Assembly (NCBI GenBank): GCA_007376135.1
Contig: VMFR01000003.1
Location: forward strand, 11,660 to 75,659
Reading direction: 5' to 3'
Source of the DNA: Parcubacteria group bacterium Gr01-1014_31
Lineage (GTDB): Bacteria; Patescibacteriota; Patescibacteriia; Buchananbacterales; GWA2-38-13
DNA length: 64,000 nt
The stretch's first letter is position 1, and every line of letters starts with the position of its first letter. The notes beneath the pieces are model-generated. The model searched no databases and had not been told where the DNA came from. It saw only the letters and a program-made list of their open reading frames with translations. Shown piece by piece: positions 3,356 to 57,347 of the stretch. A program made the translations under genes and the position numbers.

Positions 3356-3374
3356 AGAGCGGCGCAGTACTGCC

Positions 3375-4823
3375 ATGGCGTTGACGGCCCGGCGGGCAAT
3401 GGTGGGCGGTCGCGGGGCGGCCGCAGTGGTGTTGGCAGGCTCTCTGCTGCTTTCGCTGCTTACGTACTGGCAGCACGACGGTTCCTCGGATGCCGGGACG
3501 ACCTTGACGACGGCCTGGCAGATGAGCCAGGGCAAAGTGCTGTACCGCGATATCGTGGATTTTTACCCGCCCGTGGCGTTCACGCTGCTGGCGGGCGTTT
3601 TTAAAATTGTTGGCCCCAGCTATCTGGCCGCCAAGGCGCTGTTCCTGGGGTTGCTGATCATTTGCGGACTCGCGGTGCAGCGCGCCACGCGAGACTTTTT
3701 ACCCCCCGCATGGCGGTACGCCGTGCTGCCACTGTGGCTGGTATTTTTCGCGTTCTACACGCTCATCAACCACAACCCCCTCAGTTTGTGGCTTGCGGCG
3801 CTGGCCTGGGTGAGCTGGAGCACGGCGCAGCGCTCATCCTCCCGCGGATTTTCGTTCTTGGCCGGGCTGTTGGCGGGAGCGGCCAGCGGCACATTGCAGA
3901 CGAAAGGATTGGCGGTGCTGGTGGCAGCCGCACTCGTCGTTGCCATCCATCAGTGTAAGGTTTGGCGGCTCTTGTTATGGTTGGGTGGAGGTTTTGTTAC
4001 CGTGCTGTTCCTGTTATTTACCATCTGGCCGCCGGCACTTTTGTGGGAGTTGCTGGTCGCCGTTCCCGCCAATTCCTACGCTGTACCGCCGGGCCGTTTG
4101 GAGTATGGCTTGTTGGTGTTGGCGGCCGCGGTGCAGTTGGTTGCCGGCTGGCAGCTCTTGCGGCAGCGCGCTCCGATCGTGGTCTGGGGATGGTGGTGGC
4201 TGGGAGCGGCCCTGCTTGCCAGCACCGCGGTGCGCACCGACGCGCATCACGTCGTGATGAATTCGTTCCCGTTGCTGCTGGTTTCCCTGTGGATCGCGTC
4301 GCAGCGGCGGTGGGAGAGAACGCACGGCCTATCCCAAGTGGTGGATCGGTTGTTAACAACCTTGGTCGCGGCGTATCCGTTGACGCTCATGTTGCTCGTC
4401 GTCGTGGCGCTGCCGTCCGGATTCCCGACCGCCCAGGATCGGACGTTTTGGGAGTGGCTCGCGCTGCGAAACCGGGGGATCGAGCAAATCGTGTTCGCGG
4501 TACAGACCCGCGTACCGCCCGGCAAGCCCATCTACGCCGGGCCGTTCTTGGCCAATGCGTACTTTGAAACGCAACGCGAAAATCCCACCCGTTTCAACAA
4601 TCTCATCACCGGCCTGTACCCGTCCGCGTATTTTCAGGAGGCACGCGCCAGCCTGGAGGAAGATACGCCGGCGGTGGTGTTGCTTAATTACCCGCTGGTC
4701 GCCAAATACCAGCACCAGATGAACAATCCTGTCGATGCGTTCTTCTGGTCGCGCTATCGCGTGACGGCGCAATTCGGCGACACGGTGCTGTTGGAATTGC
4801 AGCAGCCGTCAGGCAGCCCGTAG
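3375..4823 (+). CDS. Polytopic GT-C fold glycosyltransferase paralog 1 (PMT_2/GT39-83-like; DE motif replaced by DA)
   Basis: Many predicted TM helices. 'FYPPVAF..FG.S...AK' block aligns to the PMT_2 signature of paralog 6. C-terminal soluble domain with the 'QRENPTRFN' motif. Start chosen at the first ATG after the tyrS stop; it is uncertain. Confidence 0.6.
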   Translation: MALTARRAMVGGRGAAAVVLAGSLLLSLLTYWQHDGSSDAGTTLTTAWQMSQGKVLYRDIVDFYPPVAFTLLAGVFKIVGPSYLAAKALFLGLLIICGLAVQRATRDFLPPAWRYAVLPLWLVFFAFYTLINHNPLSLWLAALAWVSWSTAQRSSSRGFSFLAGLLAGAASGTLQTKGLAVLVAAALVVAIHQCKVWRLLLWLGGGFVTVLFLLFTIWPPALLWELLVAVPANSYAVPPGRLEYGLLVLAAAVQLVAGWQLLRQRAPIVVWGWWWLGAALLASTAVRTDAHHVVMNSFPLLLVSLWIASQRRWERTHGLSQVVDRLLTTLVAAYPLTLMLLVVVALPSGFPTAQDRTFWEWLALRNRGIEQIVFAVQTRVPPGKPIYAGPFLANAYFETQRENPTRFNNLITGLYPSAYFQEARASLEEDTPAVVLLNYPLVAKYQHQMNNPVDAFFWSRYRVTAQFGDTVLLELQQPSGSP

Positions 4824-4827
4824 AGCT

Positions 4828-6252
4828 ATGCCGCACACCATTCTGCGCCAGCGGTGGGTCGTCTGGGGACTCTTGGCAGCCGGGTTTGCCACAGTGGCAG
4901 GCTACCACGCCGTACTTCCCATTGATGTTGATGAAACCTGGGTGCTGACGGTCGGCTGGCAGATCACCCAGGGCGTGGACCCGCTCCGCGATCTGTATGA
5001 ATTTCATACGCCCGGCGCATTCTACCTGGCCGCCGCGATCATCAAAATGTTCGGCGCCAGCGTTTGGCCGTTGCGGCTCGTGGTGACGCTGTTGACCGCG
5101 GCAACGGCCTGGCCGCTGTGGCGCCTGGCGCAACTATTGGGATTGCGGGGTTGGCAGCCGCCGGCGGTGGTGGCGACGTGGATTTTGCTGCTCACTATGT
5201 TCCCGTGGATCAACCCCAACCACCTGGCCCAGCTGGGTGGTATCTGGGCGGCGTGGGCGCTGGTCTTTGCCTGGCAGAAGCGGCGGCTGCGCTGGTTTGT
5301 TCTGGCGGGCGCGATTGCCGGGCTTGCCGTGTGGCTGTTGCAGACCCGCGGAGGCGCCCTGGTGTTGGCGGGCGTGGTAATTGCCCTCACGGCCCGTCGG
5401 CTTTGGCCGTTGGTGGCATACCTTGCCGGGGTCGGGGTGGTTTGGCTGCCATTCCTGTTGTGGCCGCCCGCGCTGCTCTGGCATAGTCTGGTCACGCTGC
5501 CGACGACCCAGTACCTGCCGTCCCAGTTCGTCGGCGTGCAGCTGGTGGTCATTACGGTCGGATTCCTCACTGTTCTCGCGCTGCTGGCATTGGCCGTGCA
5601 TGCCGCGCCGTCCGGATTTTGGCCGCTCTGGGCAGTCGCGCTTGTTCTGGCGGCAAGCATCTGGTCGCGCGCCGAAATTGCCTACTGGTCAACGATCGCC
5701 TGGCCGCTGTCGGTGCTGTTTTTTTCGCTGCTGTCGTGCCCCTGGCCCCGGCTGTCTGGCCGTCCACGGCAGACGGTGCGTGCCGTCATGTGGTACGGCG
5801 GCGCGCTGCTCGCGGCGCAGGTGTTTGGTTGGGCGGCGATCAACGGCGCGTCGCGCGTCGCGATGGCCATTTCCGACCGGCGCGCAGGGCGCGGCGACCT
5901 GTGGCAGGGGATCGGGGCAGCGGTAACGGCGCGGACGTTGCCGGGGGAGGAGATTTTTGCCCTGCCGTATCTGCCGGGGGCATATTTTTTCAGCCAGCGG
6001 CCGAACGCCACGCCGTACAATACGCTGCTGTCCAATTTTCACCCGCCCGAAATCCTCGCGGACGCGATTTCGCGGCTGGAGCGGGTCAAGCCGAAAGTGG
6101 TGGTGCGGGCACGCGACAGTTTCGCCGTTCGGCGAGGTTTTCATCAGGACGGCACCGCGCTGGACGCGTACCTGGATGACCATTACCGCGTGGCGCAAGA
6201 CTCGGTGGCCGGGTATGTGGTGGAAATTTTGGAGCGTCGGCCTGGGTTATGA
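4828..6252 (+). CDS. GT-C fold glycosyltransferase paralog 2 (DE motif intact)
   Basis: 'DVDETWVLTVGWQ' plus 'EFHTPGAFY..FGASVWPLRLVVTLLTAAT' align with the PMT_2 motif region. C-terminal domain 'SQRPNATPYN ... DAYLDDHYRV'. Starts 5 nt after the paralog 1 stop. Confidence 0.65.
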   Translation: MPHTILRQRWVVWGLLAAGFATVAGYHAVLPIDVDETWVLTVGWQITQGVDPLRDLYEFHTPGAFYLAAAIIKMFGASVWPLRLVVTLLTAATAWPLWRLAQLLGLRGWQPPAVVATWILLLTMFPWINPNHLAQLGGIWAAWALVFAWQKRRLRWFVLAGAIAGLAVWLLQTRGGALVLAGVVIALTARRLWPLVAYLAGVGVVWLPFLLWPPALLWHSLVTLPTTQYLPSQFVGVQLVVITVGFLTVLALLALAVHAAPSGFWPLWAVALVLAASIWSRAEIAYWSTIAWPLSVLFFSLLSCPWPRLSGRPRQTVRAVMWYGGALLAAQVFGWAAINGASRVAMAISDRRAGRGDLWQGIGAAVTARTLPGEEIFALPYLPGAYFFSQRPNATPYNTLLSNFHPPEILADAISRLERVKPKVVVRARDSFAVRRGFHQDGTALDAYLDDHYRVAQDSVAGYVVEILERRPGL

Positions 6253-7682
6253 ACGAGGAATTGCCGACATCTCGCTGGGGGCTGGGCGCCCGTGCCACGG
6301 TGGTCGCGGTGCTGGCAGCGGTTGCCTTCATCCGGTGGTACGTCGGAATCGATCCGGATGCGGGATTGACGATGACGGCCGCCTGGCAGGTGAGCCAGGG
6401 ATTGGTGCCGTACCGGGATTTTTTCGAATTCCATCCCCCCGGCGCATTTTATGCGCTGGCCGGCGTTTTTCAGATCTTTGGCTCCACCTACGTCGTCGCC
6501 AAACTGTTCTCGATGCTCGTTCTGGCCCTTGGCGCGGTGGGAGTGGATCGCTGCGCGCGGCGGCTGTTGCTGCGTCCGTGGCATCGCGTTGCCGCTTTGG
6601 CGGTGTGGGGGCTGCTGGCGCTGCAGTTTCCACTGGTGAGCTATAGTACATACGCGCACGTCGGTAGCATCTGGGTCGCGTGGCTTTTGGTGCGGCTCCA
6701 TCAGCGCAGCGCTCAAGGGTGGGAGGCGCTCGCCGGGTTTGCCGTCCTCGGAGCGAGCGCGGCGGGGGTGGGGTGGCTTTTGCAGACGCGCGGTGCGGCA
6801 TTGTTCCTGGTCGGGCTGGGTGTTGCCGCGGCGTCGCGCCGCTGGCAGCTGGTCGCAGCGTACCTGGGAGGATCGGGGGTGGCGCTGCTGCCCGGCCTCG
6901 CGCTTCCGCTGCGGGAATTTTGGCAGCAAACGGTCGTCTATCCCGCTGCCCACTACCCGGCCATCAACACCGACCAGCCATTGTGGCTGGTGCTCTGGGG
7001 TGGCGTCATCGTGACGCTGGGCATAGTCGCATACTGGGCGCGATCCTCGTGGCGCGGATTTTGGCCGTTGTGGTGGACGGCCCTCGCGCTCTTGGTCAGC
7101 ATCTGGCCGCACGCGAACGGGGTGTACCTCTCGATGGTGCTGTGGCCCTTGGCGCTGTTGTTCACCGCCGCGGTGCCGCCGCCGTCGGCCATGGCGTGGC
7201 GACGGCTCTGGCAGGGGGTAGCTGCGGCATCCGGAGCTTTTGCCGGCGCGCTGGCCTTGATGACCGTCGGCGTTTTTTTTACCCTGTTCCCCGGCGCGCG
7301 CGCCGCCGACCCCTGGGGCGCGCGGGCGCCCTTCTGGGAGGATCTGGCCGTTGAGGTGCGGATGCGGACGCAGCAGAACGAACCCATCTTTGCCACGCCC
7401 ACGCTACCCAATCTTTATTTTTTCGCGCAGCGTCCGAATGCCACGCGGTATAATTCCCTGTTCAGCGGTCAGTACGACGCTCCGTATTTCTTGCAAGCGG
7501 TCGTCGATCTGGAGCAGCGCCGTCCTCGATACGTCGTGCGCGAGCTGGACAGCTTGGCGGTGCAACTGGGTTACCACCGTGACGGCACCCAGGTGGATGT
7601 GTATCTGGATGAGCACTACCGCGTGGCCGCCGAGCTGACGAAGTTTCTGCCGCGGCGGTTGCAGCTCTTGGAGCGGCGATAG
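6249..7682 (+). CDS. GT-C fold glycosyltransferase paralog 3 (DA variant)
   Basis: ATGA start/stop overlap with paralog 2. 'DPDAGLTMTAAWQVSQG...EFHPPGAFY'. C-terminal 'AQRPNATRYN ... DVYLDEHYRV'. Confidence 0.65.
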   Translation: MNEELPTSRWGLGARATVVAVLAAVAFIRWYVGIDPDAGLTMTAAWQVSQGLVPYRDFFEFHPPGAFYALAGVFQIFGSTYVVAKLFSMLVLALGAVGVDRCARRLLLRPWHRVAALAVWGLLALQFPLVSYSTYAHVGSIWVAWLLVRLHQRSAQGWEALAGFAVLGASAAGVGWLLQTRGAALFLVGLGVAAASRRWQLVAAYLGGSGVALLPGLALPLREFWQQTVVYPAAHYPAINTDQPLWLVLWGGVIVTLGIVAYWARSSWRGFWPLWWTALALLVSIWPHANGVYLSMVLWPLALLFTAAVPPPSAMAWRRLWQGVAAASGAFAGALALMTVGVFFTLFPGARAADPWGARAPFWEDLAVEVRMRTQQNEPIFATPTLPNLYFFAQRPNATRYNSLFSGQYDAPYFLQAVVDLEQRRPRYVVRELDSLAVQLGYHRDGTQVDVYLDEHYRVAAELTKFLPRRLQLLERR

Positions 7683-7689
7683 CATCCGT

Positions 7690-9114
7690 ATGACGTGGTA
7701 CCCCCTCCCTCGTTCCCGCTGGACGCCTCCCGCGATTGCGGGGCTTGTGTTGGCGCTGCTGGTGGTGCGCTGGTATCCGGACCCCGCCAGCGACGAAACA
7801 TTGACGCTGACCATCGCCTGGCAGGTCAGCCAGGGGCTTGGGCTCTACCGCGATGTCTTTGAATTCCATCCGCCCGGTACGTTCTATTTCTTTGGCGCGC
7901 TGTTCCGGGTGTTCGGCCCGTCGTATCTGGCGGCGAAGATCGCGATCGTACTCCTGACCGCGGCAACCGGTTTTGCCCTCGATGTGCTAGTTCGCCGCTT
8001 CACCTCCCGCGGACTACCGCGGGTCACCGTGCTGGCGGGGTGGCTGCTGTTGGTCTGGCAATTTCCGGCGATCGGCTACCATTCCTTGGCGCACCTGGCC
8101 AGCATTTGGGTTGCGCTCTTTTTGGTTCTGGCGTCCGTTGAGCGGCGTACCGGCTGGGCTTTGGCCTGCGGTCTCGCGACGGCCGCTGCGGGCTGGTATA
8201 TGCAACCCTACGGCGTGGTCCTGGCGGCGGTGGGCGTTGGCAGCATGCTCGCGACGCGGCAGCTGCGGCTGGCGTTCGCTTACGTTGCCGCGCTCGCGAT
8301 CGCGCTGCTGCCGTTGCTGGCCTGGCCTTTGCCGCTGCTGTGGCAGCATCTGGTGCGATTCCCGCTGACGTACTACGCGCCCGCGAACCTTTCCCAAGGC
8401 AGTCCGGCAGGGTTGTTCGTCCTGGTCGCGGTGGTTCTCATGGTCGGCGCTGCGGCTGTCTTCAGTCGGCGGGTGCCATCCGGGTTTTGGCCGTTATGGT
8501 TCATGTCGCTGGTCCTGCCGCTCACCGTGTGGCCGCACTCGCAGGTCGGCTACCTGGCGAGTGTTGCCTGGCCGTTGCTTTTGCTGCTCGTGGTAACACC
8601 GCCGGGTGGGGGAGCGATGCGGGAGCAGATCTCGGCCATCGTCGGGCAAAGCCTTCGGTTTGTGGCCGTGGTCGGCGGCATCGCAGCGGCAGTCGTTTCG
8701 GTCGGATTTTTTTCCGTGCGTTGGCCGCTCCATGACGAGTTCGGTCTGCGCGTGCCGTTCTGGGACGACCTTGGAACTGCGGTGCAGGCCCGCACGAGGA
8801 CGAATGAACCGATCTTTGCCGTGCCGTACTTGCCGGCGATATATTTTTTTGCCCAGCGGCCCAATGCCACCCGGCACAACTCGCTGCAGACCGCGTTCCA
8901 TCCGCCGTACGTCTTGGATGAGATCATCACCGATCTGGAGCGCACCAAGCCGCGGGTGGTCATCCGCGAGTATGCCAGCTGGCTCGCGCGATTGGGGCAG
9001 TACGACGAGGGCAACCGCGTTGACGCCTACCTGGATATGCACTATCGGTTCAGTGAGGAGCTGACGCAGTTTGCCCCGCGGCGGATCCAGCTGTGGGAAC
9101 GACGCGTTCCGTAG
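7690..9114 (+). CDS. GT-C fold glycosyltransferase paralog 4 (DE intact)
   Basis: 'ASDETLTLTIAWQVSQG...EFHPPGTFYFF'. C-terminal 'AQRPNATRHN ... DAYLDMHYRF'. Confidence 0.65.
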   Translation: MTWYPLPRSRWTPPAIAGLVLALLVVRWYPDPASDETLTLTIAWQVSQGLGLYRDVFEFHPPGTFYFFGALFRVFGPSYLAAKIAIVLLTAATGFALDVLVRRFTSRGLPRVTVLAGWLLLVWQFPAIGYHSLAHLASIWVALFLVLASVERRTGWALACGLATAAAGWYMQPYGVVLAAVGVGSMLATRQLRLAFAYVAALAIALLPLLAWPLPLLWQHLVRFPLTYYAPANLSQGSPAGLFVLVAVVLMVGAAAVFSRRVPSGFWPLWFMSLVLPLTVWPHSQVGYLASVAWPLLLLLVVTPPGGGAMREQISAIVGQSLRFVAVVGGIAAAVVSVGFFSVRWPLHDEFGLRVPFWDDLGTAVQARTRTNEPIFAVPYLPAIYFFAQRPNATRHNSLQTAFHPPYVLDEIITDLERTKPRVVIREYASWLARLGQYDEGNRVDAYLDMHYRFSEELTQFAPRRIQLWERRVP

Positions 9115-9118
9115 TCGT

Positions 9119-9234
9119 CTATGCCCCGTAGGACAACGGAATGGCGGGGAAAATAGATATTAGACGGGGGAGAAGCTATTATGTACGCCATCACATGAGC
9201 ATTACACATTTGACCGTTGTCCTGCGGGGTAGGC
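9119..9234 (+). repeat. Start-codon-enclosing inverted-repeat element, copy A (between GT-C paralogs 4 and 5; degenerate distal ATG)
   Basis: Inverted repeats ctatgccccgtaggacaacgg and ccgttgtcctgcggggtaggc (ATG changed to AGG); begins 5 nt after the paralog 4 stop. Confidence 0.7.
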
Positions 9235-10628
9235 TGCAAGACCTTCCCCGTATCGTTGCCTCGCGGTGGTGGCCGTTCGTCTACTGGCCGGCATTGTTGC
9301 TCCTCGCGATTTTTTTGAAATGGGGCCACCTGGTCAACCAGGATGAGGGGTTAACGCTGGCCGGTGCGTGGCAGGTTAGCCTTGGGTTGCAGCCATATCG
9401 TGATTTTTACGATTTCATCACGCCGGGCTCTCATTATCTTTTGGCGGGCGTCTTTCGCATGTTCGGTTCGACGTACGTCGTGGCGAAGGTCTTTTCATTG
9501 TTCCTCCTTCTGCTCTCCCTATACGGCGTGCGACGGATCACGGTGCGGTTCGCCTCCGGACCATGGTCGTGGTGGCCGTCGCTGCTGTGGCTCTTGCTGT
9601 CCGATCACTATGTGCTGATCAATCACAACACGTACGCGCTGGTGGCGGCGGTCTGGGCGATCGAGCGCGCGTTGGCGGCAGCCGGCAAGACCGCGGCGCG
9701 ATGGCCGTCCTGGCTGGTCGCGGGGTTGCTGGCCGGCGCGACCGTGATGCTGCACCAGGCGCGGGGAGCAGCCGTGGTCGCGGCCGTGCTGTGGCTCGCG
9801 CTGACCTTCGGGGTTGTCCCGGCTCTTGCCGTCATCGGGGGAGTGGCACTTGCGCTCCTGCCGCTGTTGGCATGGCCGTTGCCGCTCCTGCTGCAATCAT
9901 TGGTTGCCTTTCCTTTCGTCCAATATCTCCCGTTCAACCGGACCGGGATGACGCTGTTGGGCGCTTTGGTCGGCGTATATCTCGGGGTGGTGTTGCTTTC
10001 CCCATCACGCTGGCGAGACCGCCGCTGGGTATTTCTCTGGGGCAGCGGGGTTTTGCTGTTGGCGAGTAACTTCAGCCAAGCCGACCGTTTTCACCTGCTG
10101 CCGGCGATGTTTCCCATCGGCGCGCTGATCGCAACGGTCGCCATCCAGCGGCGTTCGCGCTGGCCGGCGTTGATGGCCGCTTCCGGCACGGCGGTATTGG
10201 CGGTAATCTCCATCGGCTTTACGGCACACCGCATTGCCAGCGTCGGCGTCAGGCCGTTCCTTCAGCTGCGCGACCCCCAGCTGGAGCAGCTGGTTTCCCG
10301 CATACAGCAAACCGTCGCGCCCCAGCAGCCGATCTTCGCCGCTCCGTTCCTGCCCAATCTTTATTTTGAAACTCAGCGCCGTAATCCGACGCGGTTCAAC
10401 GTGCTGATCTATCGGCACCATCCTTCGGCGTTCTTTGCGGCAGCGCGTGCCAGCCTGGAAGCCGACCCACCGCCCGTCATTCTCCTGAACTACTACACGA
10501 CGCCCGAAGGGTTTGCGACATTCCTGCTGGGCAACCCGGTCACTGACTATATCCGCCAGTACTACCGATACGCGGAAACCGTGAATAACATCCAGATCTA
10601 CCGCCGCACGGTCCCTCCGACACTATGA
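9141..10628 (+). CDS. GT-C fold glycosyltransferase paralog 5 (DE intact; start uncertain because it lies inside the repeat element)
   Basis: 'NQDEGLTLAGAWQVSLG...DFITPGSHY'. C-terminal 'TQRRNPTRFN'. The first in-frame ATGs (9141, 9195) lie inside the 9119-9234 inverted-repeat element, whose distal repeat has lost the ATG. Confidence 0.6.
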   Translation: MAGKIDIRRGRSYYVRHHMSITHLTVVLRGRLQDLPRIVASRWWPFVYWPALLLLAIFLKWGHLVNQDEGLTLAGAWQVSLGLQPYRDFYDFITPGSHYLLAGVFRMFGSTYVVAKVFSLFLLLLSLYGVRRITVRFASGPWSWWPSLLWLLLSDHYVLINHNTYALVAAVWAIERALAAAGKTAARWPSWLVAGLLAGATVMLHQARGAAVVAAVLWLALTFGVVPALAVIGGVALALLPLLAWPLPLLLQSLVAFPFVQYLPFNRTGMTLLGALVGVYLGVVLLSPSRWRDRRWVFLWGSGVLLLASNFSQADRFHLLPAMFPIGALIATVAIQRRSRWPALMAASGTAVLAVISIGFTAHRIASVGVRPFLQLRDPQLEQLVSRIQQTVAPQQPIFAAPFLPNLYFETQRRNPTRFNVLIYRHHPSAFFAAARASLEADPPPVILLNYYTTPEGFATFLLGNPVTDYIRQYYRYAETVNNIQIYRRTVPPTL

Positions 10629-20170: not shown

Positions 20171-20239
20171 TAAGTGCTAAGTGTAATTCATTGATTGGCC
20201 ATGACTTAGTACTTACTGCTGTGTACTTAGTACTTCGCT

Positions 20240-28526: not shown

Positions 28527-28620
28527 AGTATTGACTTCAGACTAGCGGAGTCGGCAGCCTTACACAAGGGGAAACTATCAACTCAGCATACCCCGCAACC
28601 CTCGGCGGTACAAAGGCAAT

Positions 28621-28675
28621 GGCGAACCGCTGCGCCCGAAACGGTGAGGGCCTATTCGGCCCGCGCGGTTCGCGA
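28621..28675 (+). ncRNA. Structured RNA-like repeat copy 1 (nested hairpins)
   Basis: gcgaaccgc ... gggcc-tattc-ggccc ... gcggttcgc. Second copy at 40196-40256 in opposite orientation with compensatory changes. Confidence 0.45.
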
Positions 28676-28968
28676 GGCGCCAGCCCGGAGTTCCTAATAC
28701 ACCATCAATTGATTGTATTTCGGCGCCGATGGTGCGGGGTTGTTCCCAGCTCGCCATTCACCTTCGGTCCGATGGACATCGGACCTCGGGGTCTGGCGGC
28801 TGGAAACAAAAAGACCCCGTTCCAGAGGTCATGACCTTCATTCCTTACGGAAAGACATGTGCTTGTGGTGCAAAGAAAATCGCGAGGCCCTGGAACGGGG
28901 TTGAGGAGGGAGAGTGTACTTCCCTACCCAAAGAGCACCTCCAGTATACGGCGGGAGGTGCGGCAACG

Positions 28969-30180
28969 TCAACGCGGGTCGGCCAGGAGCTGCGACAGCA
29001 GCTGGTTGCGTTCCTTCATGGAGCGGGCGTGGAGGACCACCGCGATGGTTTCGCCGCGCCGGACGGCGACGGTGCGCTGGGCCTCAATGAGAAAACCGGA
29101 TTTGGCGCCGTCGGGGCCGAAACGCAGCAACGTAGCGTTGCGGTTGACGACCGGGATGTCGCGGGCGGTGCCATCCGGCCGACGGGCGGCGATGGTGAAT
29201 TGTCCCATGACCGACGTGCGAGCGATCTCGGGCTGGCTGAAAGCCGCCGCCGCCAGGCGCGCCATTTCGGCGGCCGTGGAAACATTGTAGGGATCCAAAC
29301 CGCTGGGGTCGGTGAAGCGGGTGCGGGTCAGGCCGAGCGCGTTGGCTTTGGTGTTCATCGCGGCCACGAATTCGCGTTCGGTCAAGCTGCTGGCGCCTGC
29401 CAGCATTCCGGCCGCTTGGTTGGAGGAGGCCACCAGCATCGCTCGCCACAGGTCGCGCACCGTCACGCGGTCGCCGGACGTGAACGGCACCTCGCTGGTG
29501 ACGTCGCCGGGGTCGACGTACAGCTGCGGATAGGCGAGGGCGTCGGCGGTGATGGGGACGACCTGGTCCCAATCGGGGTCGTGGTCGAGCAGTACCATCG
29601 CTGTCATCAGCTTGGTCAGCGACGCGATGGGCAGGATCTCATCGGCGCGGGTGCCATCGGCGATCTGGCCATCCTCAAGCCGGGCGGCGGCCACGCCGTT
29701 GAACGCGGGGTCAAAGGTGATCTGCCGCGTGTTCATCGGCACCTGGGCGAGGTCGGCGGTTTTCACCCCCAGGTGCGCGCGCAGCACGGCCGTCCAGCAG
29801 GATTCGGGGTCGTTCAAGGGAGTTGCCCGGCTGTCCAGCGGGCTGACGAAGTACAGCCGGCCGCGTTGTTCGGTCGCCAGCAGAAAGCGGCCCGACAACC
29901 GGCGGGCGAGTCCGCGGTCGCCGCCGCGCTTTCCGGCGGCGGGGAGTTTGTTCAGGTCCGCGGTGCGGATGCCCAGGGCAAGTTGCGGGGCCAGCTCCCA
30001 GCAGCCGCCGGGGTTCTGCAGAAAGTAACGTTTTCCGTCCCCCGGGTTGACGTACCAGGCTTGGCCGCGCTGGTCAGTCTGGAGCAAGACCCGGCCCGCG
30101 GCGCGTTGGGTTAACGGCGGCGCGGCGGCCAGCAACGGCAGCGGGATGATGAAGAGTCCGAGGAGAAAGAATTTGCGCAT
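28969..30180 (-). CDS. D-alanyl-D-alanine carboxypeptidase (S11, PBP5/DacB-like) with two N-terminal approximately 55-aa tandem repeats
   Basis: SxxK 'SLTK', SxN 'SSN', KTG-like region; signal peptide; repeats 'LLxTxQRGxxxYVxPxDxxxxxLxxPxxCW...TADL'. Confidence 0.8.
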   Translation of the reverse strand: MRKFFLLGLFIIPLPLLAAAPPLTQRAAGRVLLQTDQRGQAWYVNPGDGKRYFLQNPGGCWELAPQLALGIRTADLNKLPAAGKRGGDRGLARRLSGRFLLATEQRGRLYFVSPLDSRATPLNDPESCWTAVLRAHLGVKTADLAQVPMNTRQITFDPAFNGVAAARLEDGQIADGTRADEILPIASLTKLMTAMVLLDHDPDWDQVVPITADALAYPQLYVDPGDVTSEVPFTSGDRVTVRDLWRAMLVASSNQAAGMLAGASSLTEREFVAAMNTKANALGLTRTRFTDPSGLDPYNVSTAAEMARLAAAAFSQPEIARTSVMGQFTIAARRPDGTARDIPVVNRNATLLRFGPDGAKSGFLIEAQRTVAVRRGETIAVVLHARSMKERNQLLSQLLADPR

Positions 30181-30288
30181 ACCCGGTAGGACAACAGTCA
30201 AATATGGTGGTTTCCTCGTAACAATTGAGAGTGTACTTGCCCTGACGCAGACTTTTCCCCGCCCGTCCGTTGTACTACCGGGCATACG
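30177..30288 (-). repeat. Start-codon-enclosing inverted-repeat element, copy B (upstream of dacB-like gene)
   Basis: Terminal inverted repeats gcatacccggtaggacaacag and ccgttgtactaccgggcatacg. Fills the entire intergenic space between the M23 stop (30289) and the dacB ATG (30180, inside the repeat). Confidence 0.7.
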
Positions 30289-31488
30289 TTAGGGAAGCAA
30301 CGGGTCAAGGCGTTGGACCTCGGCGGTAAAGGCATCCCGTTGGTCGTCGGGGATAGGTATGCCGGCGGGCAATTCGACGGTGAACGGGTTGACCTTCGCG
30401 CCGCGTTGGTACATTTCGTAGTGTAGGTGCGGCCCGGTCGAGTGGCCCGTCGATCCTACGTAGCCGATGACCTGGCCCTGGGATACGTTCGTTCCCGTCC
30501 GCATACCTTTGGCTAAACGGGAGAAGTGGCCGTAGCGGGTGGTGAATGTTTCATTGTGGCGCACGGTCAGGGAAATACCGTAGCCGTTATTCCAACCGGC
30601 TTGCACCACCACGCCGTCGCCAACCGCAACCGTCGGCGTTCCCATCGGCGCCGCGTAGTCAATGGCGTAATGGGCGGTGATCTTTTTTGAAATGGGATCC
30701 CAGCGCCTGCCGGTGAATCCGGAACTGATGTAGCGATAGGTCAGCGGCGATTTTAAAAAGACGCGCTGCAGGGAATGGCCTTGTTCGTCAAAGTAGCCGC
30801 TCACGCCGTCAGTTGAAAAATGGTAGGCATGGTAGGCGGTGCCGTCATTGGTAAATCGTGCCGTCAGGATATTGCCGGGCATGACGTATTTCCCGTTGCG
30901 AAAGCGCTGTTCGTACGCCACGGCGAACGTATCGCCGACCCGCACGTCAACGGCAAAGTCCACTTGCCAGGCAAAGACTTCGGCCAAGGCGATGGCCAGC
31001 TGGCCGTCATCACCTTGGGAAAGCATCGCTTCCCACAGGGACGAAGTGATCTCGCCCCTCGCTATTGCGGTCCGTACTTCGTAGGGGACGGGCTGCTCAT
31101 CCGCTATCCAGCCGTCGGCGGTGCGGCGAACCGTCACGATATCTTCGCGATTCGGTTCATAGCTGACCGCGACGAGCCGGCCGTCGTCGGCCGAGAATGT
31201 GAACGTGAGCGGCTGGCCGGATCGGAGTTCGGCCAGGGTATGGATCGTTTCGGAAGCCGTCAACACCGCCTGCGCGTCGGTACCCCCGACCTCTGCCCGC
31301 TCGGCGAGGACGCCAAAAGTATCGCCCTCCCCGATGACGAACGGTACCGTCCGATCGGGCGTTGGGGTTGGCGTTTCCGTCGCGGCGGGTGTTGGTGCGT
31401 CCGGCGTGGAACGGCCGCTGCGGGGTAAGAGCAATGTGGCCGTTCCCAGTAGGGCAAATGTTGCAACCAAAAAAATGGTTTTCCGCAT
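30289..31488 (-). CDS. M23 family metallopeptidase (LytM-like)
   Basis: 'HxxxD' and 'GYVGSTGHSTGPHLHYEM' M23 catalytic motifs; signal peptide. Confidence 0.85.
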   Translation of the reverse strand: MRKTIFLVATFALLGTATLLLPRSGRSTPDAPTPAATETPTPTPDRTVPFVIGEGDTFGVLAERAEVGGTDAQAVLTASETIHTLAELRSGQPLTFTFSADDGRLVAVSYEPNREDIVTVRRTADGWIADEQPVPYEVRTAIARGEITSSLWEAMLSQGDDGQLAIALAEVFAWQVDFAVDVRVGDTFAVAYEQRFRNGKYVMPGNILTARFTNDGTAYHAYHFSTDGVSGYFDEQGHSLQRVFLKSPLTYRYISSGFTGRRWDPISKKITAHYAIDYAAPMGTPTVAVGDGVVVQAGWNNGYGISLTVRHNETFTTRYGHFSRLAKGMRTGTNVSQGQVIGYVGSTGHSTGPHLHYEMYQRGAKVNPFTVELPAGIPIPDDQRDAFTAEVQRLDPLLP

Positions 31489-36951: not shown

Positions 36952-37986
36952 TTATACAATCAGCATCGCGTCGCCGTAGGAATAGAAGCGATAGCCCGCA
37001 GCGATTGCCTCCTGGTAGGCCGCCAGCACCAGGTCGCGTCCGCCAAATGCGCATACCAGCAGCAGCAAGCTGGAGCGGGGGAGATGAAAATTGGTGACCA
37101 ACCCATCAACGGCCTGGAAACGGAAGCCGGGCGTGATGAAGAGGGTCGTTTCCCCACCGCCGGCGGAAACCATGCCGCGGTGGTCAAGGGCGGATTGTTC
37201 CAGCGTGCGCACTGTCGTGGTGCCGACCGCCACGACCCGGCCTCCGCGCCGGCGGCAAGCATTGATGGCCGCGGCCGCCGGGGGCGTTATCGCGTAGCGT
37301 TCGGCGTGCAATTGGCCGGTCTGCAGTTGCCGAGGGCGCAGTGGCTGGAACGTGCCTAGCCCGACGTGGAGGGTAACCGCCGTTGATGCGATGCCGCGCT
37401 GGCGCAGCGCAGCAAGCAGCGCCGGGGTGAAATGCAGTCCGGCGGTCGGTGCGGCCACCGCCCCCGGATTTTTTGCGAACATCGTTTGGTAGTTGACGCG
37501 GTCGGCCGGAAAATCCTCGCGTCCCAGGTAGGGCGGCAGCGGCACATGGCCGGCCTCGTCCAAAATTTTTTCCAGTGGGACATCGGTCTGCAGGGCGACG
37601 GTCGCCAGTCCTTCCGGATGCTTGGCGGTGATAGTGACACGCAGTTCCTTGGATACCGTCAGCGTCTCCCCAACGCGGCATTTGCTGGCGGGCTTGAGCA
37701 ATGCCTCCCACGAACCCGGGGCCAACTCCCGGTGGAGCAGCAGTTCCACGGCGCCACCCGACGCGCGGATAGCCCGCAGCCGCGCCCAGATGACCTTGGT
37801 GTCGTTGACAACCAAGCAGTCGGCGGGCGCCAGGAGGGCCGGCAGGTCGGCAAAGGTTCGGTGCTGCCACGATTGCGTCCGCCGGTCGATGACCAGCAGC
37901 CGTTCGGTGCCGCGCGCGAGGGGTTCCCGCGCGATCAATGACGGCGGCAGCCGGAAGTCGTACGATTGCAGATCGGCAGGCAGCAT
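36952..37986 (-). CDS. queA: S-adenosylmethionine:tRNA ribosyltransferase-isomerase
   Basis: 'LSDFDFELPEELIA'-like N-terminus ('LQSYDFRLPPSLIAREP'), conserved 'VAVGTTTVRTLE'. Confidence 0.9.
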   Translation of the reverse strand: MLPADLQSYDFRLPPSLIAREPLARGTERLLVIDRRTQSWQHRTFADLPALLAPADCLVVNDTKVIWARLRAIRASGGAVELLLHRELAPGSWEALLKPASKCRVGETLTVSKELRVTITAKHPEGLATVALQTDVPLEKILDEAGHVPLPPYLGREDFPADRVNYQTMFAKNPGAVAAPTAGLHFTPALLAALRQRGIASTAVTLHVGLGTFQPLRPRQLQTGQLHAERYAITPPAAAAINACRRRGGRVVAVGTTTVRTLEQSALDHRGMVSAGGGETTLFITPGFRFQAVDGLVTNFHLPRSSLLLLVCAFGGRDLVLAAYQEAIAAGYRFYSYGDAMLIV

Positions 37987-38092
37987 ACCCCGTAGGACAA
38001 CGGTTAAACGTATGGTCTTCGTGTTACGACGTAAAAAGTATCTGTGCCGCCGTTTCTTTTCCATCCCCAGCCCGTTGTACTACGGGGCATAG
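37983..38092 (-). repeat. Start-codon-enclosing inverted-repeat element, copy D (upstream of queA)
   Basis: Inverted repeats gcataccccgtaggacaacgg and ccgttgtactacggggcatag; the queA ATG (37986) lies inside the repeat. The ORF track artificially extends queA through the element as '...LTVVLRGM'. Confidence 0.7.
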
Positions 38093-38208
38093 GGTCGGCC
38101 TTATCGTAGGGTGCCACGCCGACGGTGTCAAAATCGTCCTGCGTTGCGTTTTTTCGTCTTCTATGGTATGGTGGTGCACACCCCGCGGGGATTTTTTATT
38201 TACGTTCC

Positions 38209-40029
<1,821 letters not shown>

Positions 40030-40046
40030 CGTCGGTTCGCGTCGCC

Positions 40047-40072
40047 CGCGCGTCAGCCGCGCGGTTTTTTAT
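40047..40072 (+). terminator. Intrinsic terminator after typA
   Basis: gcgcg-tcagc-cgcgc followed by ggttttttat. Confidence 0.6.
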
Positions 40073-40195
40073 TTCCCTACCTCCAAATACTCGTTCCCCC
40101 AAGGCGAGACGGGATGAATAGAGGAGAAAAAGGAAATAACCCCGCACCAATTTTGCCGTACCCCTCCGCTCCACCATAGTTTTGGCACGCCGTGG

Positions 40196-40256
40196 CGAAC
40201 GGCCGCGAAGCGCGAGGCCGAATAGGCCTCCCCGTTCTGGGCGCAGCGCTTCGCCG
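40196..40256 (-). ncRNA. Structured RNA-like repeat copy 2 (inverted orientation)
   Basis: gcgaagcgc ... gaggcc-gaata-ggcctc ... gcgcttcgc; same architecture as 28621-28675. Confidence 0.45.
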
Positions 40257-40319
40257 TATCCTCTGGAGCTAAATTGGTGCTGGGGTTGGTGGGGTGATAC
40301 CACCCCGTTTGCGGAGTGG

Positions 40320-40934
40320 TTATTTACTGTCGTGTATAGACCATAGCCAACCCATGGTTGCCGTCGCCGCAGTCCCCAGCAGCACGAACGTCGCGGCCGT
40401 CTGGAAGTATTGCGGTGGGAAGAGGACAACCAGCTTGCTTTCCGCCGGGTCGAACGCCCACGGCGCCTGGATAAAGACCATCTGATGGAACCATTGGAAT
40501 GCCGCGGCGAATGTCAGGCTTCCGAGCACGAGGAATCCCAGCGTTACCGCCAGGGAGGCTTGGCACGCCGAGCGCAGGGCCTGCCGCAGCCATGGTATGC
40601 CGTGCCCGCGGTATCCGCGGAAACCTAAAACGATGGCAGCCAGAGTGCAAGCGAGCAGGAGCCATGGCACGGTGCCGATGATAGTCGCAACCTCCTGGAG
40701 GTGGGCGCGTTCATCCGGGGTGTAGCGGGCAATCAGGGCAGTATCGCGGGTATAAAAAAACCGTTGCAGCTGCGCGGTTGCCTCCAGCCGTTCTCGGGCG
40801 GACGAGCCGGTAACCGGAGTAAGGGCAACAAGCAACTGCTGCGGCTGCGACAGGAAGATGACGCCCAGTGTGAACGCGCACACGGCACCCGCTGTTGCCG
40901 CCGCGGCAAAGAGTGAAATTCGCAGTGATGACAT
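40320..40934 (-). CDS. DUF1461/TIGR01906-like integral membrane protein
   Basis: Two TM helices flanking an extracytoplasmic domain; start at the ATGA overlap with the upstream gene stop. The ORF track's 140-aa N-terminal extension is rejected. Confidence 0.5.
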   Translation of the reverse strand: MSSLRISLFAAAATAGAVCAFTLGVIFLSQPQQLLVALTPVTGSSARERLEATAQLQRFFYTRDTALIARYTPDERAHLQEVATIIGTVPWLLLACTLAAIVLGFRGYRGHGIPWLRQALRSACQASLAVTLGFLVLGSLTFAAAFQWFHQMVFIQAPWAFDPAESKLVVLFPPQYFQTAATFVLLGTAATATMGWLWSIHDSK

Positions 40935-47313: not shown

Positions 47314-49335
47314 CTATTCCGCTGCTACTTCTATCTGCATCGTCGGTTTGTCCTTGACCTTGCCGTAACCGCACTGCGGTCCGGGGTCAATGACCATGCT
47401 CCCATCCGTTGCCCGCACGGCTCCGGCGGCCGCATGCCAGTGCGCCTGACCGCCGTCGCAGCCCTGTTCGCTTTCTACGATGAGCTGGTCGACCGGCAGG
47501 TACTTGCCATTGTATTGGATGACCTGGACCTTGATCATTTCTTTGTCCGGTGTCGGCGTGGGGGTTGGTTGCGTTCCGCCACCGCCGGTGGTCTCGCGCG
47601 GCGTCGGGGTCGGTGTCGCTGTAGGCGTCGGGGTCGGATCGCCCGCGGTCGGCGTGGGGGTTGGCGTCGGGGTCGGCGGCGGGACGCACAAGTTCTTGCC
47701 GTCCGCGCCATCCTGGCCCGGCGGGTTGCCCTTGCCGCCTTTGCCGCCCTTGCCTTCGCCGCAGCCGTCGCCGCCGTTCCCGCCGTTGCCGCCCGTTTCA
47801 TCCTGCACCGCGCCGTCGCTGCCGTTGCGCGTCTTGCCCACGCCTCCTTTGCCGAAAATACTTTTGGCGTCGCCGCCTTTGCCGCCGGGTCCGCCGGGAC
47901 CGCTGGCGTCGCAGTTGCCGCCGTTGCCGCCTTTGCCGCCGTGGGCGTCCGCATCGCCGCCGTTGCCGCCCACATCCTCGGGCGAGGAGCGGCCTGCGCC
48001 GCCCGTCAGCGTCAGCGCCGCTTTGCCGCCCTGGCCGCCGGTGGCAGTACCGCTGCCGCCATTGCCGCCGCGCTGCTTGCACTTCAGGCCGTCGCCGCCG
48101 TTGCCGGGGTCCGCGGTCGCCAGGCCGCCGTCGCCGCCGAACATCGCGTCGAACGTGACGTTGCTGGCGCCCGCGACCGTGCCGGCGATGGACAGCTCTT
48201 TGACGTTATCGCCGCCCTGGCCGCCCGTCGCTCTGGCGTCGCCGCCGTCCTCGCTCGGTCCGCCGTGCTTGCCGAGCGCCGTGGTGCTGCCGCCCGCGCC
48301 GCCATTGCCGGTCGAGACCTCGAAGGCACCCGTGATCTTGAATTCGCTACCCGCCACCATTTTGAAGTTGCCGGGTTTACCACCCTTGCCGCCGATGGCC
48401 ATGCCGGGCTTGCAGTCGCGCTTGGTTTCCGCATCGCCGCCCTTGCCGCCGTTGCCCAGTTTCAGCTTGAAATTATTGATGGTGATGTTCGGCGCTTTGA
48501 CCAGCAGCCGGAATGCGTCCTCGCCATCCTTGCCGCGCGCGTTGCAGCTGGTCCCTTTGTCGTCCGCGCCGGGCCGGCCGTCCGGTCCGGTCAGTTCAAA
48601 ATTTTGGACGTTAAGGCCAACGGCATCGGGGAATTGGAATATCACCATCCGTCGCACGCCGGGCGGCGGGGTGCCGACGCTGACCCGCCCCGAGATGGTC
48701 ACCGTATGGGAAGTTGCCTTGGCCGCCGGAATGCCCCAGAGGGAGCGGCGGGGGAGCGGTCCCGGCACGGGGGTCGGTTCAACGACCGCCGCGAGCGGCG
48801 AGCGTTCGATGCCGGCTTCGGATCCTCCAATGAACGGTCCGACGCGGTTGCCCGCGCCCGTCGGTGACCCGGCTTCCTGGTACAATTTTTCCAGTTCCTG
48901 CGCGGAGTCGGCCAGCAAATCGGCGCGGCTGGAAATTTGGACGTTGCCGTCGGCGGCAATCTCCGCATTTTTGGCAAAGGTGACGTCGTCGGCAACGACG
49001 ATGCGCACGTCGCCGCCTTTGCCGTCAGCGCCACGGCACTGCAGTTTCCCGTTGACCGCGGTCGTCCCCCGGACCGTAAGTTCCAGGTTCCCGCCGTCGC
49101 AGCCAAGTTCCCCCGCCACGTCGAGGTTACCCTCTACGGTCAGTTTCGCCCCGCCCCTGAGCACAACGGGTTTGTCAGCGGCGACCGCATAGTCACCCTT
49201 GACCGTCAGGTCTTCGCTGATGACGATGGCGTTCTTTGGGATCTGGACGCTTGGCGCGGTCGTCGTTTTTTTGGCGCAGCCAGCCGCCGCGAACGCCAAG
49301 GCGACTGCCGACCACCGCAGGACGCGGGTGCCCAT
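47314..49335 (-). CDS. Large lipoprotein with Gly-rich (GGxGGxGG) repeats and a Pro-Thr linker
   Basis: Lipobox 'LAFAAAGC'; long 'GGNGG(D/S)G' repeat region; 'PTPTPTPTPT' linker; Cys-containing C-terminal domain. Confidence 0.7.
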   Translation of the reverse strand: MGTRVLRWSAVALAFAAAGCAKKTTTAPSVQIPKNAIVISEDLTVKGDYAVAADKPVVLRGGAKLTVEGNLDVAGELGCDGGNLELTVRGTTAVNGKLQCRGADGKGGDVRIVVADDVTFAKNAEIAADGNVQISSRADLLADSAQELEKLYQEAGSPTGAGNRVGPFIGGSEAGIERSPLAAVVEPTPVPGPLPRRSLWGIPAAKATSHTVTISGRVSVGTPPPGVRRMVIFQFPDAVGLNVQNFELTGPDGRPGADDKGTSCNARGKDGEDAFRLLVKAPNITINNFKLKLGNGGKGGDAETKRDCKPGMAIGGKGGKPGNFKMVAGSEFKITGAFEVSTGNGGAGGSTTALGKHGGPSEDGGDARATGGQGGDNVKELSIAGTVAGASNVTFDAMFGGDGGLATADPGNGGDGLKCKQRGGNGGSGTATGGQGGKAALTLTGGAGRSSPEDVGGNGGDADAHGGKGGNGGNCDASGPGGPGGKGGDAKSIFGKGGVGKTRNGSDGAVQDETGGNGGNGGDGCGEGKGGKGGKGNPPGQDGADGKNLCVPPPTPTPTPTPTAGDPTPTPTATPTPTPRETTGGGGTQPTPTPTPDKEMIKVQVIQYNGKYLPVDQLIVESEQGCDGGQAHWHAAAGAVRATDGSMVIDPGPQCGYGKVKDKPTMQIEVAAE

Positions 49336-50861: not shown

Positions 50862-50882
50862 CGTTGTACTAAGTACTATGTA

Positions 50883-51248
50883 CTAAGTGCTACGTGCGTT
50901 GGCTCGCATCCAACCGTTGAGTAACCTACCAGCGGTTTCGCAAAGTTGCAAGGCCTCATCGTGGTCCTGGGAAGTGAGGTACTTCAAATCCTTAGCGATA
51001 AGGAAGGCACATTTAGTTTCTTCAAGTGAGGCTTCGGCTATGTTGTAGAAATGCAGTGCTTCCGCCGTTGATCGGCGCTTGAATCCTTCCGTGATATTGA
51101 GGGCAATTGAAACCGCAGCTCGGCGGAGCTGCGATGTCAATCCGTACGTTTCCGATTTTGGGAACGCGGCAGTCAGCCGGTAGGTGGTGAGGACTACAGT
51201 ATAGGCAGCTTGCCAGGCTTTGATATCCCGAAAGGTGGTTGCTGCCAT
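50883..51248 (-). CDS. Four-helix-bundle protein (TIGR02436; 23S rRNA intervening-sequence-type protein)
   Basis: 'AYxxxLxTY ... SQLRRAAVSIALNITEG' family signature. Gene is tightly flanked by AGTACTTAGT-type repeats. Confidence 0.75.
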   Translation of the reverse strand: MAATTFRDIKAWQAAYTVVLTTYRLTAAFPKSETYGLTSQLRRAAVSIALNITEGFKRRSTAEALHFYNIAEASLEETKCAFLIAKDLKYLTSQDHDEALQLCETAGRLLNGWMRANARST

Positions 51249-51295
51249 ACCTCCACAGTACTTAGTCCTTAGGACTTAGTACTTAACACTTCCAA

Positions 51296-55660: not shown

Positions 55661-55754
55661 AATTGTTCCTCCAAATTTTGTTGCGAAATTTGGTTAGGAA
55701 CAATTAACCCACCGAAAGTCAGCCGAATAGACTATGGAAATATACGGACCAGCC

Positions 55755-55885
55755 GCAGGCGGTTGACCCCGTTAGACAACCTTTTTGCTAATTATCTTGT
55801 GCCTGTAGCTAGTGCAGGTACTACTTTAGTGCGTCTTTTAACAATAATCCCATGGTTGTCTAACGGGGTTGACCGCGCCCGCCTG
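55755..55885. repeat. Approximately 130-bp AT-rich element bounded by 15-bp perfect inverted repeats
   Basis: ccccgttagacaacc ... ggttgtctaacgggg flanking a low-GC core; sits in a long non-coding spacer. Confidence 0.5.
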
Positions 55886-56188
55886 ACATGGCTAGGCACC
55901 TTATGTATCCGCGGACTGTAGGTGGGTTGGTACCTTAATTTTCCGCAGTCCCCCTACGGGGGATCACCCGAAGGGTGGCAAGGGAACCAGCGAAGAGACA
56001 GGGAAAGCAAACCAAAAACGGCCCATCGGGCCGCTTGGTTTCTTGTGTTCTCCGTGTGCAGCCGGGGCGCGTGCGGCGCACGTACCGTTGCATTACCTTC
56101 GAGACCGTGCTAGCATCACCGCTGGCTCGGGAGCATGGTGCGACCGAGCGAGCCGGTCTTTCCAATGAAAACAACGGAGGTTCTTTTC

Positions 56189-57258: not shown

Positions 57259-57347
57259 ACGGTTCCCGGGCTCAACTACCGTCCGCCCGTTGCGAGCGGT
57301 TTTTTGTAACCAAAAACGGCCCAACGGGCCGTTTGGTTCTTCGCGGG

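Follow-up and report, generated by a model that had tools for sequence, protein, structure and literature searches.

A covarying three-stem RNA family with a long closing helix in Parcubacteria

The window analyzed here is a 64-kb stretch of DNA with 62% G+C from Parcubacteria group bacterium Gr01-1014_31, a member of the Candidate Phyla Radiation (CPR), and it carries two copies of an RNA of about 151 nt whose three-stem structure is preserved by compensatory changes in other genomes and which matches no catalogued family, structured orphan noncoding RNAs (ncRNAs) being already known as a kind. An earlier note, made from the sequence alone, had described a nested hairpin of about 55 nt at 28621-28675 on the plus strand and, read as the reverse complement, at 40196-40256. 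Both hairpins are present at these positions and the fold is real, but it is only the core of a longer RNA of about 151-155 nt with a long closing helix, and this RNA is encoded on the strand opposite to the one described. We give about even credence to the proposal that the two hairpins are the core of paralogous genes for an independently expressed, stable and probably protein-binding small RNA whose ends are joined by a helix of the leader-trailer type.

Architecture, covariation and strand of the RNA

In the orientation first described, copy 1 (28621-28675, plus strand) reads GGCGAACCGCTGCGCCCGAAACGGTGAGGGCCTATTCGGCCCGCGCGGTTCGC and copy 2 (40256-40196, reverse complement) reads GGCGAAGCGCTGCGCCCAGAACGGGGAGGCCTATTCGGCCTCGCGCTTCGC. 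The differences between them preserve pairing just as had been reported: the outer 9-bp stem carries a C-G to G-C swap (GCGAACCGC/GCGGTTCGC vs GCGAAGCGC/GCGCTTCGC), the inner stem covaries through a G-C to A-U change plus one additional pair, and the pentaloop is the same in both. The loop core GGCCTATTCGGCC and the 17-mer GGCGAASCGCTGCGCCC have exact matches in the window only at the two copies. Folding of the 55-70-nt core, a check that the note had proposed, gave weak z-scores of -1.5 to -2.2 against shuffles on either strand, and because single-sequence folding was this weak, the case had to rest on comparison rather than on thermodynamics. When the two spacers are aligned whole, their similarity spans about 190 columns and takes in two mutually complementary segments, ACCCC(A)GCACC on the upstream side of the hairpin and GGTGCGGGGTT some 60 nt beyond it on the downstream side. 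About 200 nt folded around each copy gave a common architecture with a closing helix, the conserved hairpin and a variable second hairpin, with z-scores of -2.1 and -5.4 for the two copies.

Between the ends of its closing helix the RNA measures about 151 nt (about 155 nt for the model match) and consists of three parts. P1 is an 18-bp helix of the 5' and 3' ends, its 5' arm starting ACCCCGC and its 3' arm ending GC-U-GGGGU, in which the U is bulged in most members. P2 is a variable region of about 50 nt that is unalignable between the two window copies. P3, which contains the hairpin first described, is an almost invariant small three-way junction made of an outer stem of 11 bp that contains a bulged A, the hairpin P3a capped by a GAAUA pentaloop, and the mini-hairpin P3b (CCGUUNNGGG); its conserved unpaired stretches are only 5-6 nt long. 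The two window copies diverge throughout P2 and the distal half of P1, where both arms have been altered together. An alternative pairing of P3, CCGAA with UUNGG, appeared in several single-sequence folds and was rejected because the variable NN positions fail to keep it.

That covariation which preserves pairing marks a selected structure, as the earlier note had argued, is borne out by the further copies that its proposed search brought to light in other genomes, with their stem changes compensated. We scanned 185,579 species genomes once with a pattern that constrains the internal loop and the terminal loop only, not the stems. The scan returned five loci, two of them clear homologs, from Candidatus Yanofskybacteria (L003) and from an unclassified metagenome-assembled genome (L004), and the other three matching by chance; in both homologs the stems differ yet are compensated and the outer helix is kept, neither of which the pattern demanded. 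One scan of metagenomes added L252, L258, L260 (identical to L269), L262 and L276 and found the L003 sequence again in L267 and L279, its remaining matches being due to chance. Synteny look-ups anchored on GrpE yielded one clear new homolog (L288), the L003 sequence once more (L287) and two marginal matches, and a second covariance model found nothing further that was convincing. A weak false match of the RNA model, at 4002-4047 of L289 from a related member of the Parcubacteria, is a canonical CIRCE operator (TTAGCACTC-N9-GAGTGCTAA) upstream of hrcA. A viral origin was rejected, since two scans of viral contigs (IMG/VR) gave chance matches only and blastn searches of phage and plasmid collections gave no match to the element. 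The genomes of relatives were seen as stretches of about 20 kb each, and as far as seen the family is restricted to the Parcubacteria, within which its core is near-identical across genomes that range from about 45% to 62-63% G+C.

A covariance model built from nine sequences (R1) finds exactly two copies in the window, with 128.9 and 119.3 bits, the next match, at no more than about 20 bits, being the reverse strand of a copy. It also recovers two members from outside both its training set and the pattern scans, a second paralog in L262 (5978-6129, 102 bits) and a diverged copy in L288 (14179-14327, 69.7 bits). In an alignment of 11 distinct sequences (A7), standard pairs fill 95.6% of stem cells, and 93.9% of those in P1. 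Both sides have changed in 19 of the 36 pairs (9/18 in P1, 7/11 in the outer P3 stem and 3/5 in P3a), values that none of 500 shuffles reaches, and sliding the partner by 1-3 columns leaves 36-47% of cells paired. Eight of the 11 sequences came from patterns that fix the loops, so the invariance of the loops is partly a matter of ascertainment, and the stems were left unconstrained. The fold is kept in the three sequences that no DNA pattern picked (L262 5978-6129, L288 14179-14327 and window copy 1), and their loops are mixed: the L288 copy keeps GAAUA with a different internal loop, the internal loop of the L262 copy is mutated, and both loops are retained in window copy 1, from which the analysis started.

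The comparison also shows which strand is the RNA, namely minus at copy 1 and plus at copy 2, opposite to the strand that had been proposed. On this strand the 36 pairs of the 11 aligned sequences comprise 353 Watson-Crick pairs, 20 G·U pairs and a single A·C mismatch, with the G·U pairs spread over 12 pair positions in eight sequences, whereas the strand first proposed would count 20 A·C mismatches and one G·U pair. In L260 three such mismatches would fall in a row and destroy the P3 stem. RNAalifold gives a consensus energy of -51.0 kcal/mol for the RNA strand vs -42.7 kcal/mol for the other. Minimum free energy is indecisive, GC-rich members folding slightly better on the other strand, and we have therefore relied on the asymmetry between G·U and A·C together with an independent check from a tRNA gene of the window. 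The 10-mer ACCCCGCACC occurs at exactly three sites in the window, which are the P1 5' arms of both copies, on the strand favored by the G·U pairs, and the 5' leader of a tRNA-Arg gene, on its coding strand.

Copy 1 thus occupies 28590-28740 on the minus strand from the first to the last paired base of P1 (cmsearch 128.9 bits, E = 1.4e-26; model match 28588-28742). Its P1 5' arm, ACCCCGCACCAUCGGCGC, lies at 28723-28740 and shares its first 10 nt with the tRNA-Arg leader; P2, a long imperfect hairpin whose sequence is unconserved between the copies, lies at 28674-28722; and P3, the earlier hairpin seen on its other strand, at 28622-28673, with an 11-bp outer stem with bulged A, P3a as GGGCC-GAAUA-GGCCC and P3b as CCGUUUCGGG. 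A variable junction of about 13 nt (J3/1, 28609-28621) leads to the P1 3' arm, CCGCCGAGGGUUGCGGGGU, at 28590-28608. Copy 2 occupies 40139-40286 on the plus strand (cmsearch 119.3 bits, E = 1.9e-24; model match 40137-40288), with the P1 5' arm ACCCCGCACCAAUUUUGC at 40139-40156, P2 at 40157-40204, and P3 at 40205-40254, where the outer stem encloses P3a (GGCC-GAAUA-GGCC), P3b (CCGUUCUGGG) and a CGCAG bulge region. Its J3/1, also variable and of about 13 nt, is at 40255-40267, and its P1 3' arm, GCUAAAUUGGUGC-U-GGGGU with the bulged U, at 40268-40286.

Known families and the helix shared with tRNA-Arg

Across the whole window, the only gathering-level matches to Rfam 15 (4227 models) are two tRNAs. 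At E<=10, a threshold applied to four members and to models that include 6S, YrlA/Y RNA, SRP, RNase P, tmRNA, raiA, HEARO and IS605-orfB RNAs, nothing is matched at copy 1, copy 2 attracts only noise of about 15 bits from microRNA models, and nothing overlaps the element in the AT-rich loci L252 and L276. A tRNA-like reading was rejected, ARAGORN finding nothing at the element and no T or D arms, and a full-text search of the literature found no description of the RNA. Its closest likeness as a kind is to orphan ncRNA motifs such as the raiA motif RNA and others of the Weinberg/Breaker type, which are likewise defined by covariation, have several stems and an invariant junction, lack a fixed gene partner and are restricted to particular lineages. 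It differs from them in its CPR host, in being smaller than the "ornate" large RNAs, and in having paralogs with signs of duplication and decay.

Three classes of DNA element or signal with paired ends were also compared. Repetitive extragenic palindromic (REP) elements and BIMEs are short imperfect palindromes of about 20-40 nt that occur in many copies per genome, often clustered. The present unit is about 150 nt long with a three-stem interior and occurs, unclustered, as only two diverged copies in 64 kb, without a short REP palindrome and with closing-helix arms that covary between the copies. The REP-like option offered by the earlier note thus fails, and its other two options, a small ncRNA or a protein-binding site, are still the best reading. 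The attC sites of integrons are imperfect palindromes that follow a cassette ORF (open reading frame) and end in R''/R' core sites (RYYYAAC ... GTTRRRY). Read directly, the ends of the present element are ACCCCGC ... GC(U)GGGGU, and its neighbors are housekeeping genes rather than cassettes. An intrinsic (Rho-independent) terminator is a G+C-rich hairpin with a U run immediately after it on the transcribed strand. A scan for terminators flags none at the element; U-rich runs do follow P1 on the strand first described, where the "hairpin" would be a 150-nt multi-stem structure with the A·C mismatches.

The third site of the shared 10-mer belongs to a tRNA-Arg(UCU) gene at 62205-62275 on the minus strand, identified by ARAGORN and Rfam, which is enclosed by complementary flanks at 62190-62291. 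These form a helix of 14 bp with the 5' arm ACCCCGCACCUUUCC and the 3' arm GAAAGGCGCGGGGU, the 3' trailer UGAAAGGCGCGGGGU pairing with a leader whose first 10 nt are the P1 5' end of both copies of the RNA. The helix base common to P1 and the tRNA-Arg flanks is thus ACCCCGCACC / GGYGCGGGGU, and in both settings the flanks are complementary, the pairing of P1 being kept by covariation. A general helix of this kind around tRNAs was considered and rejected, such flanks being absent at the neighboring tRNA-His of the window and at the tRNAs in L258, L288 and L290. The link suggests that small stable RNAs share an end-helix signal for their expression or maturation.

Leader-trailer helices of stable-RNA precursors are established as rRNA processing stems across bacteria and archaea (PMC11404451). 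As in those precursors, complementary sequences at the two ends pair in a long helix that covaries; here, however, what lies inside is an RNA of about 115 nt, and in one case a lone tRNA, in place of 16S or 23S rRNA. P1 may also belong to the mature RNA, and cleavage by RNase III or another enzyme is conjectural in this setting.

If the likeness holds, P1 would join the ends of the RNA for maturation, for protection from exonucleases, or for both. The invariant junction of P3 would be the working part. Because the conserved single-stranded stretches are too short for an antisense seed, P3 most likely binds a protein, a ligand being less likely, and such binding would imply that the RNA probably acts in trans and not on a neighboring gene. 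Fold, strand, family and the missing conserved neighbor are demonstrated here, whereas transcription, maturation at P1 and protein binding are steps that we infer.

Genomic context and competing explanations

In the window, copy 1 lies between the genes for an S11 D,D-carboxypeptidase and a Gmad2-domain protein, and copy 2 between those for BipA and Lit, in a spacer whose bounds we correct from those first given to the BipA stop (40029) and the Lit stop (40320). It was from this BipA, which has 100% identity to the protein of Parcubacteria group bacterium Gr01-1014_31 and whose next relatives are from Uhrbacteria and other Patescibacteria, that the window was assigned to a CPR bacterium. Mechanically called ORFs overlap the two spacers at 28619-28834 (plus) and 39899-40429 (minus). 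A protein-coding reading was rejected: the 71-aa ORF at 28619-28834 has no Pfam match and its frame is broken by an indel between the copies. Elsewhere the neighbors encode GrpE, DnaK, DnaJ, a P-type ATPase, a protein with a Major Vault Protein (MVP) shoulder domain, a MopE-repeat protein, a leucine-rich repeat protein, a NUDIX protein, CorA and QueA. Across the loci there is no conserved neighbor gene and no common neighbor function, and the orientation of the element toward its neighbors varies. A cis-regulatory leader such as a riboswitch or RNA thermometer would sit at a set place ahead of functionally related genes on its own strand; of the present copies, copy 1 alone lies ahead of a gene on the RNA strand (Gmad2, at 62 nt), the remaining copies converging on or diverging from unrelated genes. 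At L260, and also in L269, the RNA adjoins a gene (7399-10011, plus) for an 870-aa protein with MVP shoulder and Vault_3 repeat domains. The idea of a vault RNA was dropped as coincidence, this gene standing beside the RNA at L260 only, with tblastn finding none in the window or at other loci.

Signals that could drive independent expression are clearest outside the window. In AT-rich members the 5' end is preceded, at a distance of 5-7 nt, by a TACAAA or TACAAT box, and four Yanofskybacteria-like copies at three loci share an upstream block of about 40 nt that contains TTGTTC-18-TACAAA, so that the conserved unit in that lineage includes a promoter-like region. The two copies in L262, separated by 4 kb, can be aligned over their whole length, P2 and the upstream block included, and are clearly more alike than the pair in the window; the one at 5978-6129 has the same block and no adjacent gene start. 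The element is retained in the grpE-dnaK spacer of three diverged lineages (L003, L252 and L262) with its stems compensated. Both window copies are preceded by the terminator of an upstream gene or small RNA. Beside copy 1 the latter is a separate candidate, just upstream at 28805-28972 on the minus strand, with a strong promoter-like site, TTGACG-18-TATACT (28972-28943), a CUCCCUCCUC stretch in its 5' part, and a long hairpin of about 100 nt with the arms ACCCCGUUCCAG / CUGGAACGGGGU followed by a terminator (28830-28813) plus UUUUUGUUU. At 28768-28787, which on the RNA strand is 28-47 nt upstream of the copy 1 5' end, there is a perfect 20-bp palindrome, GGTCCGATGGACATCGGACC; it may serve as an operator or form a hairpin, and copy 2 has no counterpart.

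A number of observations sit poorly with an independently expressed, protein-binding RNA. Its protein partner is a matter of pure inference, no sigma-70-like promoter was found upstream of either window copy, and the downstream terminator is weak or absent. Distribution is patchy: only some of eight GrpE-anchored regions (hrcA-grpE-dnaK) of related Parcubacteria carry the element, and the BipA-Lit spacer of relatives with 78-82% BipA identity does not, which is why the covariation had to come from other lineages. The L262 paralog at 5978-6129 is degenerate, with its internal loop mutated and its P1 end compensated (CCCA/UGGG), and at 14589-14860 of L286 there is a composite in which a truncated L003-type copy, consisting of the distal half, is joined to a 141-nt ACCCC...GGGGT element with a different interior. 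(In this composite the usual dnaK/dnaJ-type ATG of the truncated copy is mutated to ATT.) Such degenerate and truncated copies look like the behavior of a spreading element. The upstream block of the Yanofskybacteria-like copies ends exactly at the ATG, on the other strand, of dnaK (L003 and L262) or dnaJ (L288), which hints at a local role in that lineage. On the strand first described, a U-rich run follows P1 in the majority of members (UUAUUUCCUUUUUCU in the case of copy 2), the chief observation that speaks for that strand, and the element often begins 7-32 nt past the stop codon of grpE or of the P-type ATPase, NUDIX or Lit gene, two features that would fit a terminator-like role there.

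The main competitor, which we consider unlikely, is a mobile palindrome resembling a miniature inverted-repeat transposable element (MITE) or an ERIC or Correia element. P1 would serve it as terminal inverted repeats for recognition by a transposase, and it would move from one intergenic site to another and from genome to genome; the strand-specific fold would then be due to an intermediate of single-stranded DNA or RNA, or to effects on the transcripts of the host. The 18-bp P1 arms can indeed be read as terminal inverted repeats, though they change together between copies, unlike the arms of decaying inverted repeats, and contain a conserved bulge on one side only. Patchiness among relatives, non-syntenic insertion sites often a few nucleotides past stop codons, and a density of two copies in stretches of about 15-64 kb, seen in two genomes that are unrelated, those of the window and L262, would all be expected of such an element. 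The same can be said of the degenerate paralog in L262, of the truncated copy that abuts a different ACCCC...GGGGT element in L286, of the near identity of the core between genomes of 62% and about 45% G+C, and of the ACCCCG...CGGGGT termini found also on other elements of the window and on the tRNA-Arg flanks. Yet no target-site duplication is visible as a direct repeat in the flanks of any inspected copy, copies within a genome are old and diverged in the window, where P2 of the pair is unalignable, though the two in L262 are clearly more alike, and no transposase was noticed among the annotated or checked neighbors, nor was there a match in the phage and plasmid collections. The most conserved part is the interior P3 junction rather than the ends, its changes are compensatory with G·U outnumbering A·C by 20:1, and the grpE-dnaK site has retained the element across diverged lineages. 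The enterobacterial ERIC/IRU and neisserial Correia repeats are comparable in size (about 130-155 bp), in having inverted-repeat ends, and in lying intergenically near gene ends in either orientation with a patchy distribution. The element described here differs from them in its low copy number, the lack of a visible target duplication, its covarying arms, and a conserved interior with strand-specific tolerance of G·U.

We find it less probable still that the element acts in cis, as a large terminator, insulator or transcript stabilizer or, in the Yanofskybacteria-like lineage, as a leader of or antisense to dnaK/dnaJ. The U-rich runs after P1 and the starts 7-32 nt past the grpE, P-type ATPase, NUDIX and Lit stops would suit a terminator, and a leader would account for the way in which the element, together with its conserved block of about 37-40 nt, stops exactly where dnaK or dnaJ starts with its ATG. 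On that strand, however, the alignment has its 20 A·C mismatches and the P3 stem of L260 is lost to three consecutive ones, window copy 1 has neither an upstream nor a downstream gene, and for a plain terminator an invariant three-way junction and a length of 150 nt would both be unnecessary. The loci also lack a common neighbor function, and the L262 copy at 5978-6129 has the upstream block with no adjoining gene start.

Of all the explanations weighed, we give least weight, and very little, to a diverged member of a known housekeeping or ribonucleoprotein class with paired ends, such as a CPR 6S RNA acting as a decoy for RNA polymerase or a Y-RNA-like partner of Ro. Like 6S RNA and bacterial Y RNAs, the RNA is small and presumably stable, with a length of about 150 nt, a long end-closing helix with a conserved bulge and a partly open interior; its two paralogs recall 6S-1 and 6S-2, paralogs being found in some genomes for these RNAs too, and existing models cover CPR lineages poorly. 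Against this, the four members show not even a marginal Rfam match to 6S, YrlA, SRP, RNase P or tmRNA at E<=10, the interior is arranged three ways around an invariant junction instead of forming a rod with a central bubble, and tRNA-like T or D arms are missing (ARAGORN). No Ro (TROVE-domain) gene was noticed among the annotated neighbors, nor was any other associated protein gene found, and close relatives, of which about 20 kb per genome was seen, lack the RNA near the same loci, as would be unexpected for a housekeeping RNA.

Returning to the stable small RNA with a leader-trailer-type end helix, a more specific form of this proposal, which we advance tentatively, is a CPR-specific ribonucleoprotein RNA that acts in trans, with a junction that would bind a conserved protein and with maturation through an end-helix system held in common with at least one tRNA.

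Related repeats and significance for the Candidate Phyla Radiation

Several other elements of the window resemble the RNA in their outline. Elements of about 100-115 nt with long closing helices that start (A/G)CCCCG lie at 28815-28900 and 55767-55868 and in an intergenic family of three copies of about 115 nt (9119-9235, plus; 30177-30293, minus; 37983-38098, minus). The family has a 20-bp closing helix, TATGCCCCGTAGTACAACGG ... CCGTTGTCCTACGGGGTATGC, in which one copy carries a compensatory change from CCCCG/CGGGG to CCCGG/CCGGG; its interior is less conserved, and it has no gathering-level Rfam match. The element at 55750-55885 (136 nt) has 32-nt inverted-repeat arms that are 81% complementary and include GACCCCGTTAGACAACC / GGTTGTCTAACGGGGTTGAC, around an AT-rich interior with 43% G+C compared with 62% for the genome.

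Repeats of other kinds are also present. A 63-nt direct repeat with 79% identity (56010-56072 and 57308-57370) begins with a terminator-like hairpin, AACCAAAAACGGCCCATCGGGCCGCTTGGTT, and short AT-rich repeats of the type AGTACTTAGTACT, both direct and inverted, occur at 20204-20235, 50865-50895 and 51257-51284 and may be binding sites. Five tandem paralogous segments spaced every ~1430 nt at 3497-10400 are probably a tandem gene family, and at 47720-48460 9-nt periodic repeats rich in GCC-GCC point to a minus-strand gene for a glycine-rich repeat protein. In the Yanofskybacteria contig L286, precomputed Pfam annotation assigns to a DnaB helicase gene at 2984-5638 (minus) an intein that has a LAGLIDADG endonuclease domain.

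The CPR (Patescibacteria) makes up a large share of bacterial diversity, most of it uncultured and with minimal genomes, and to our knowledge almost nothing is known of its noncoding RNAs. An RNA backed by covariation across genomes of 45-63% G+C and without a relative in Rfam is a candidate for an RNA-protein machine or a regulator in these organisms. Should the element prove instead to be mobile, it would be among the first small nonautonomous repeats characterized in CPR genomes. The alignment and the model can serve as the seed of an Rfam-style family and so improve the annotation of CPR genomes. If the RNA is a CPR ribonucleoprotein component, it would represent a new RNA class and reveal an unusual maturation signal shared among small stable RNAs of the Parcubacteria.

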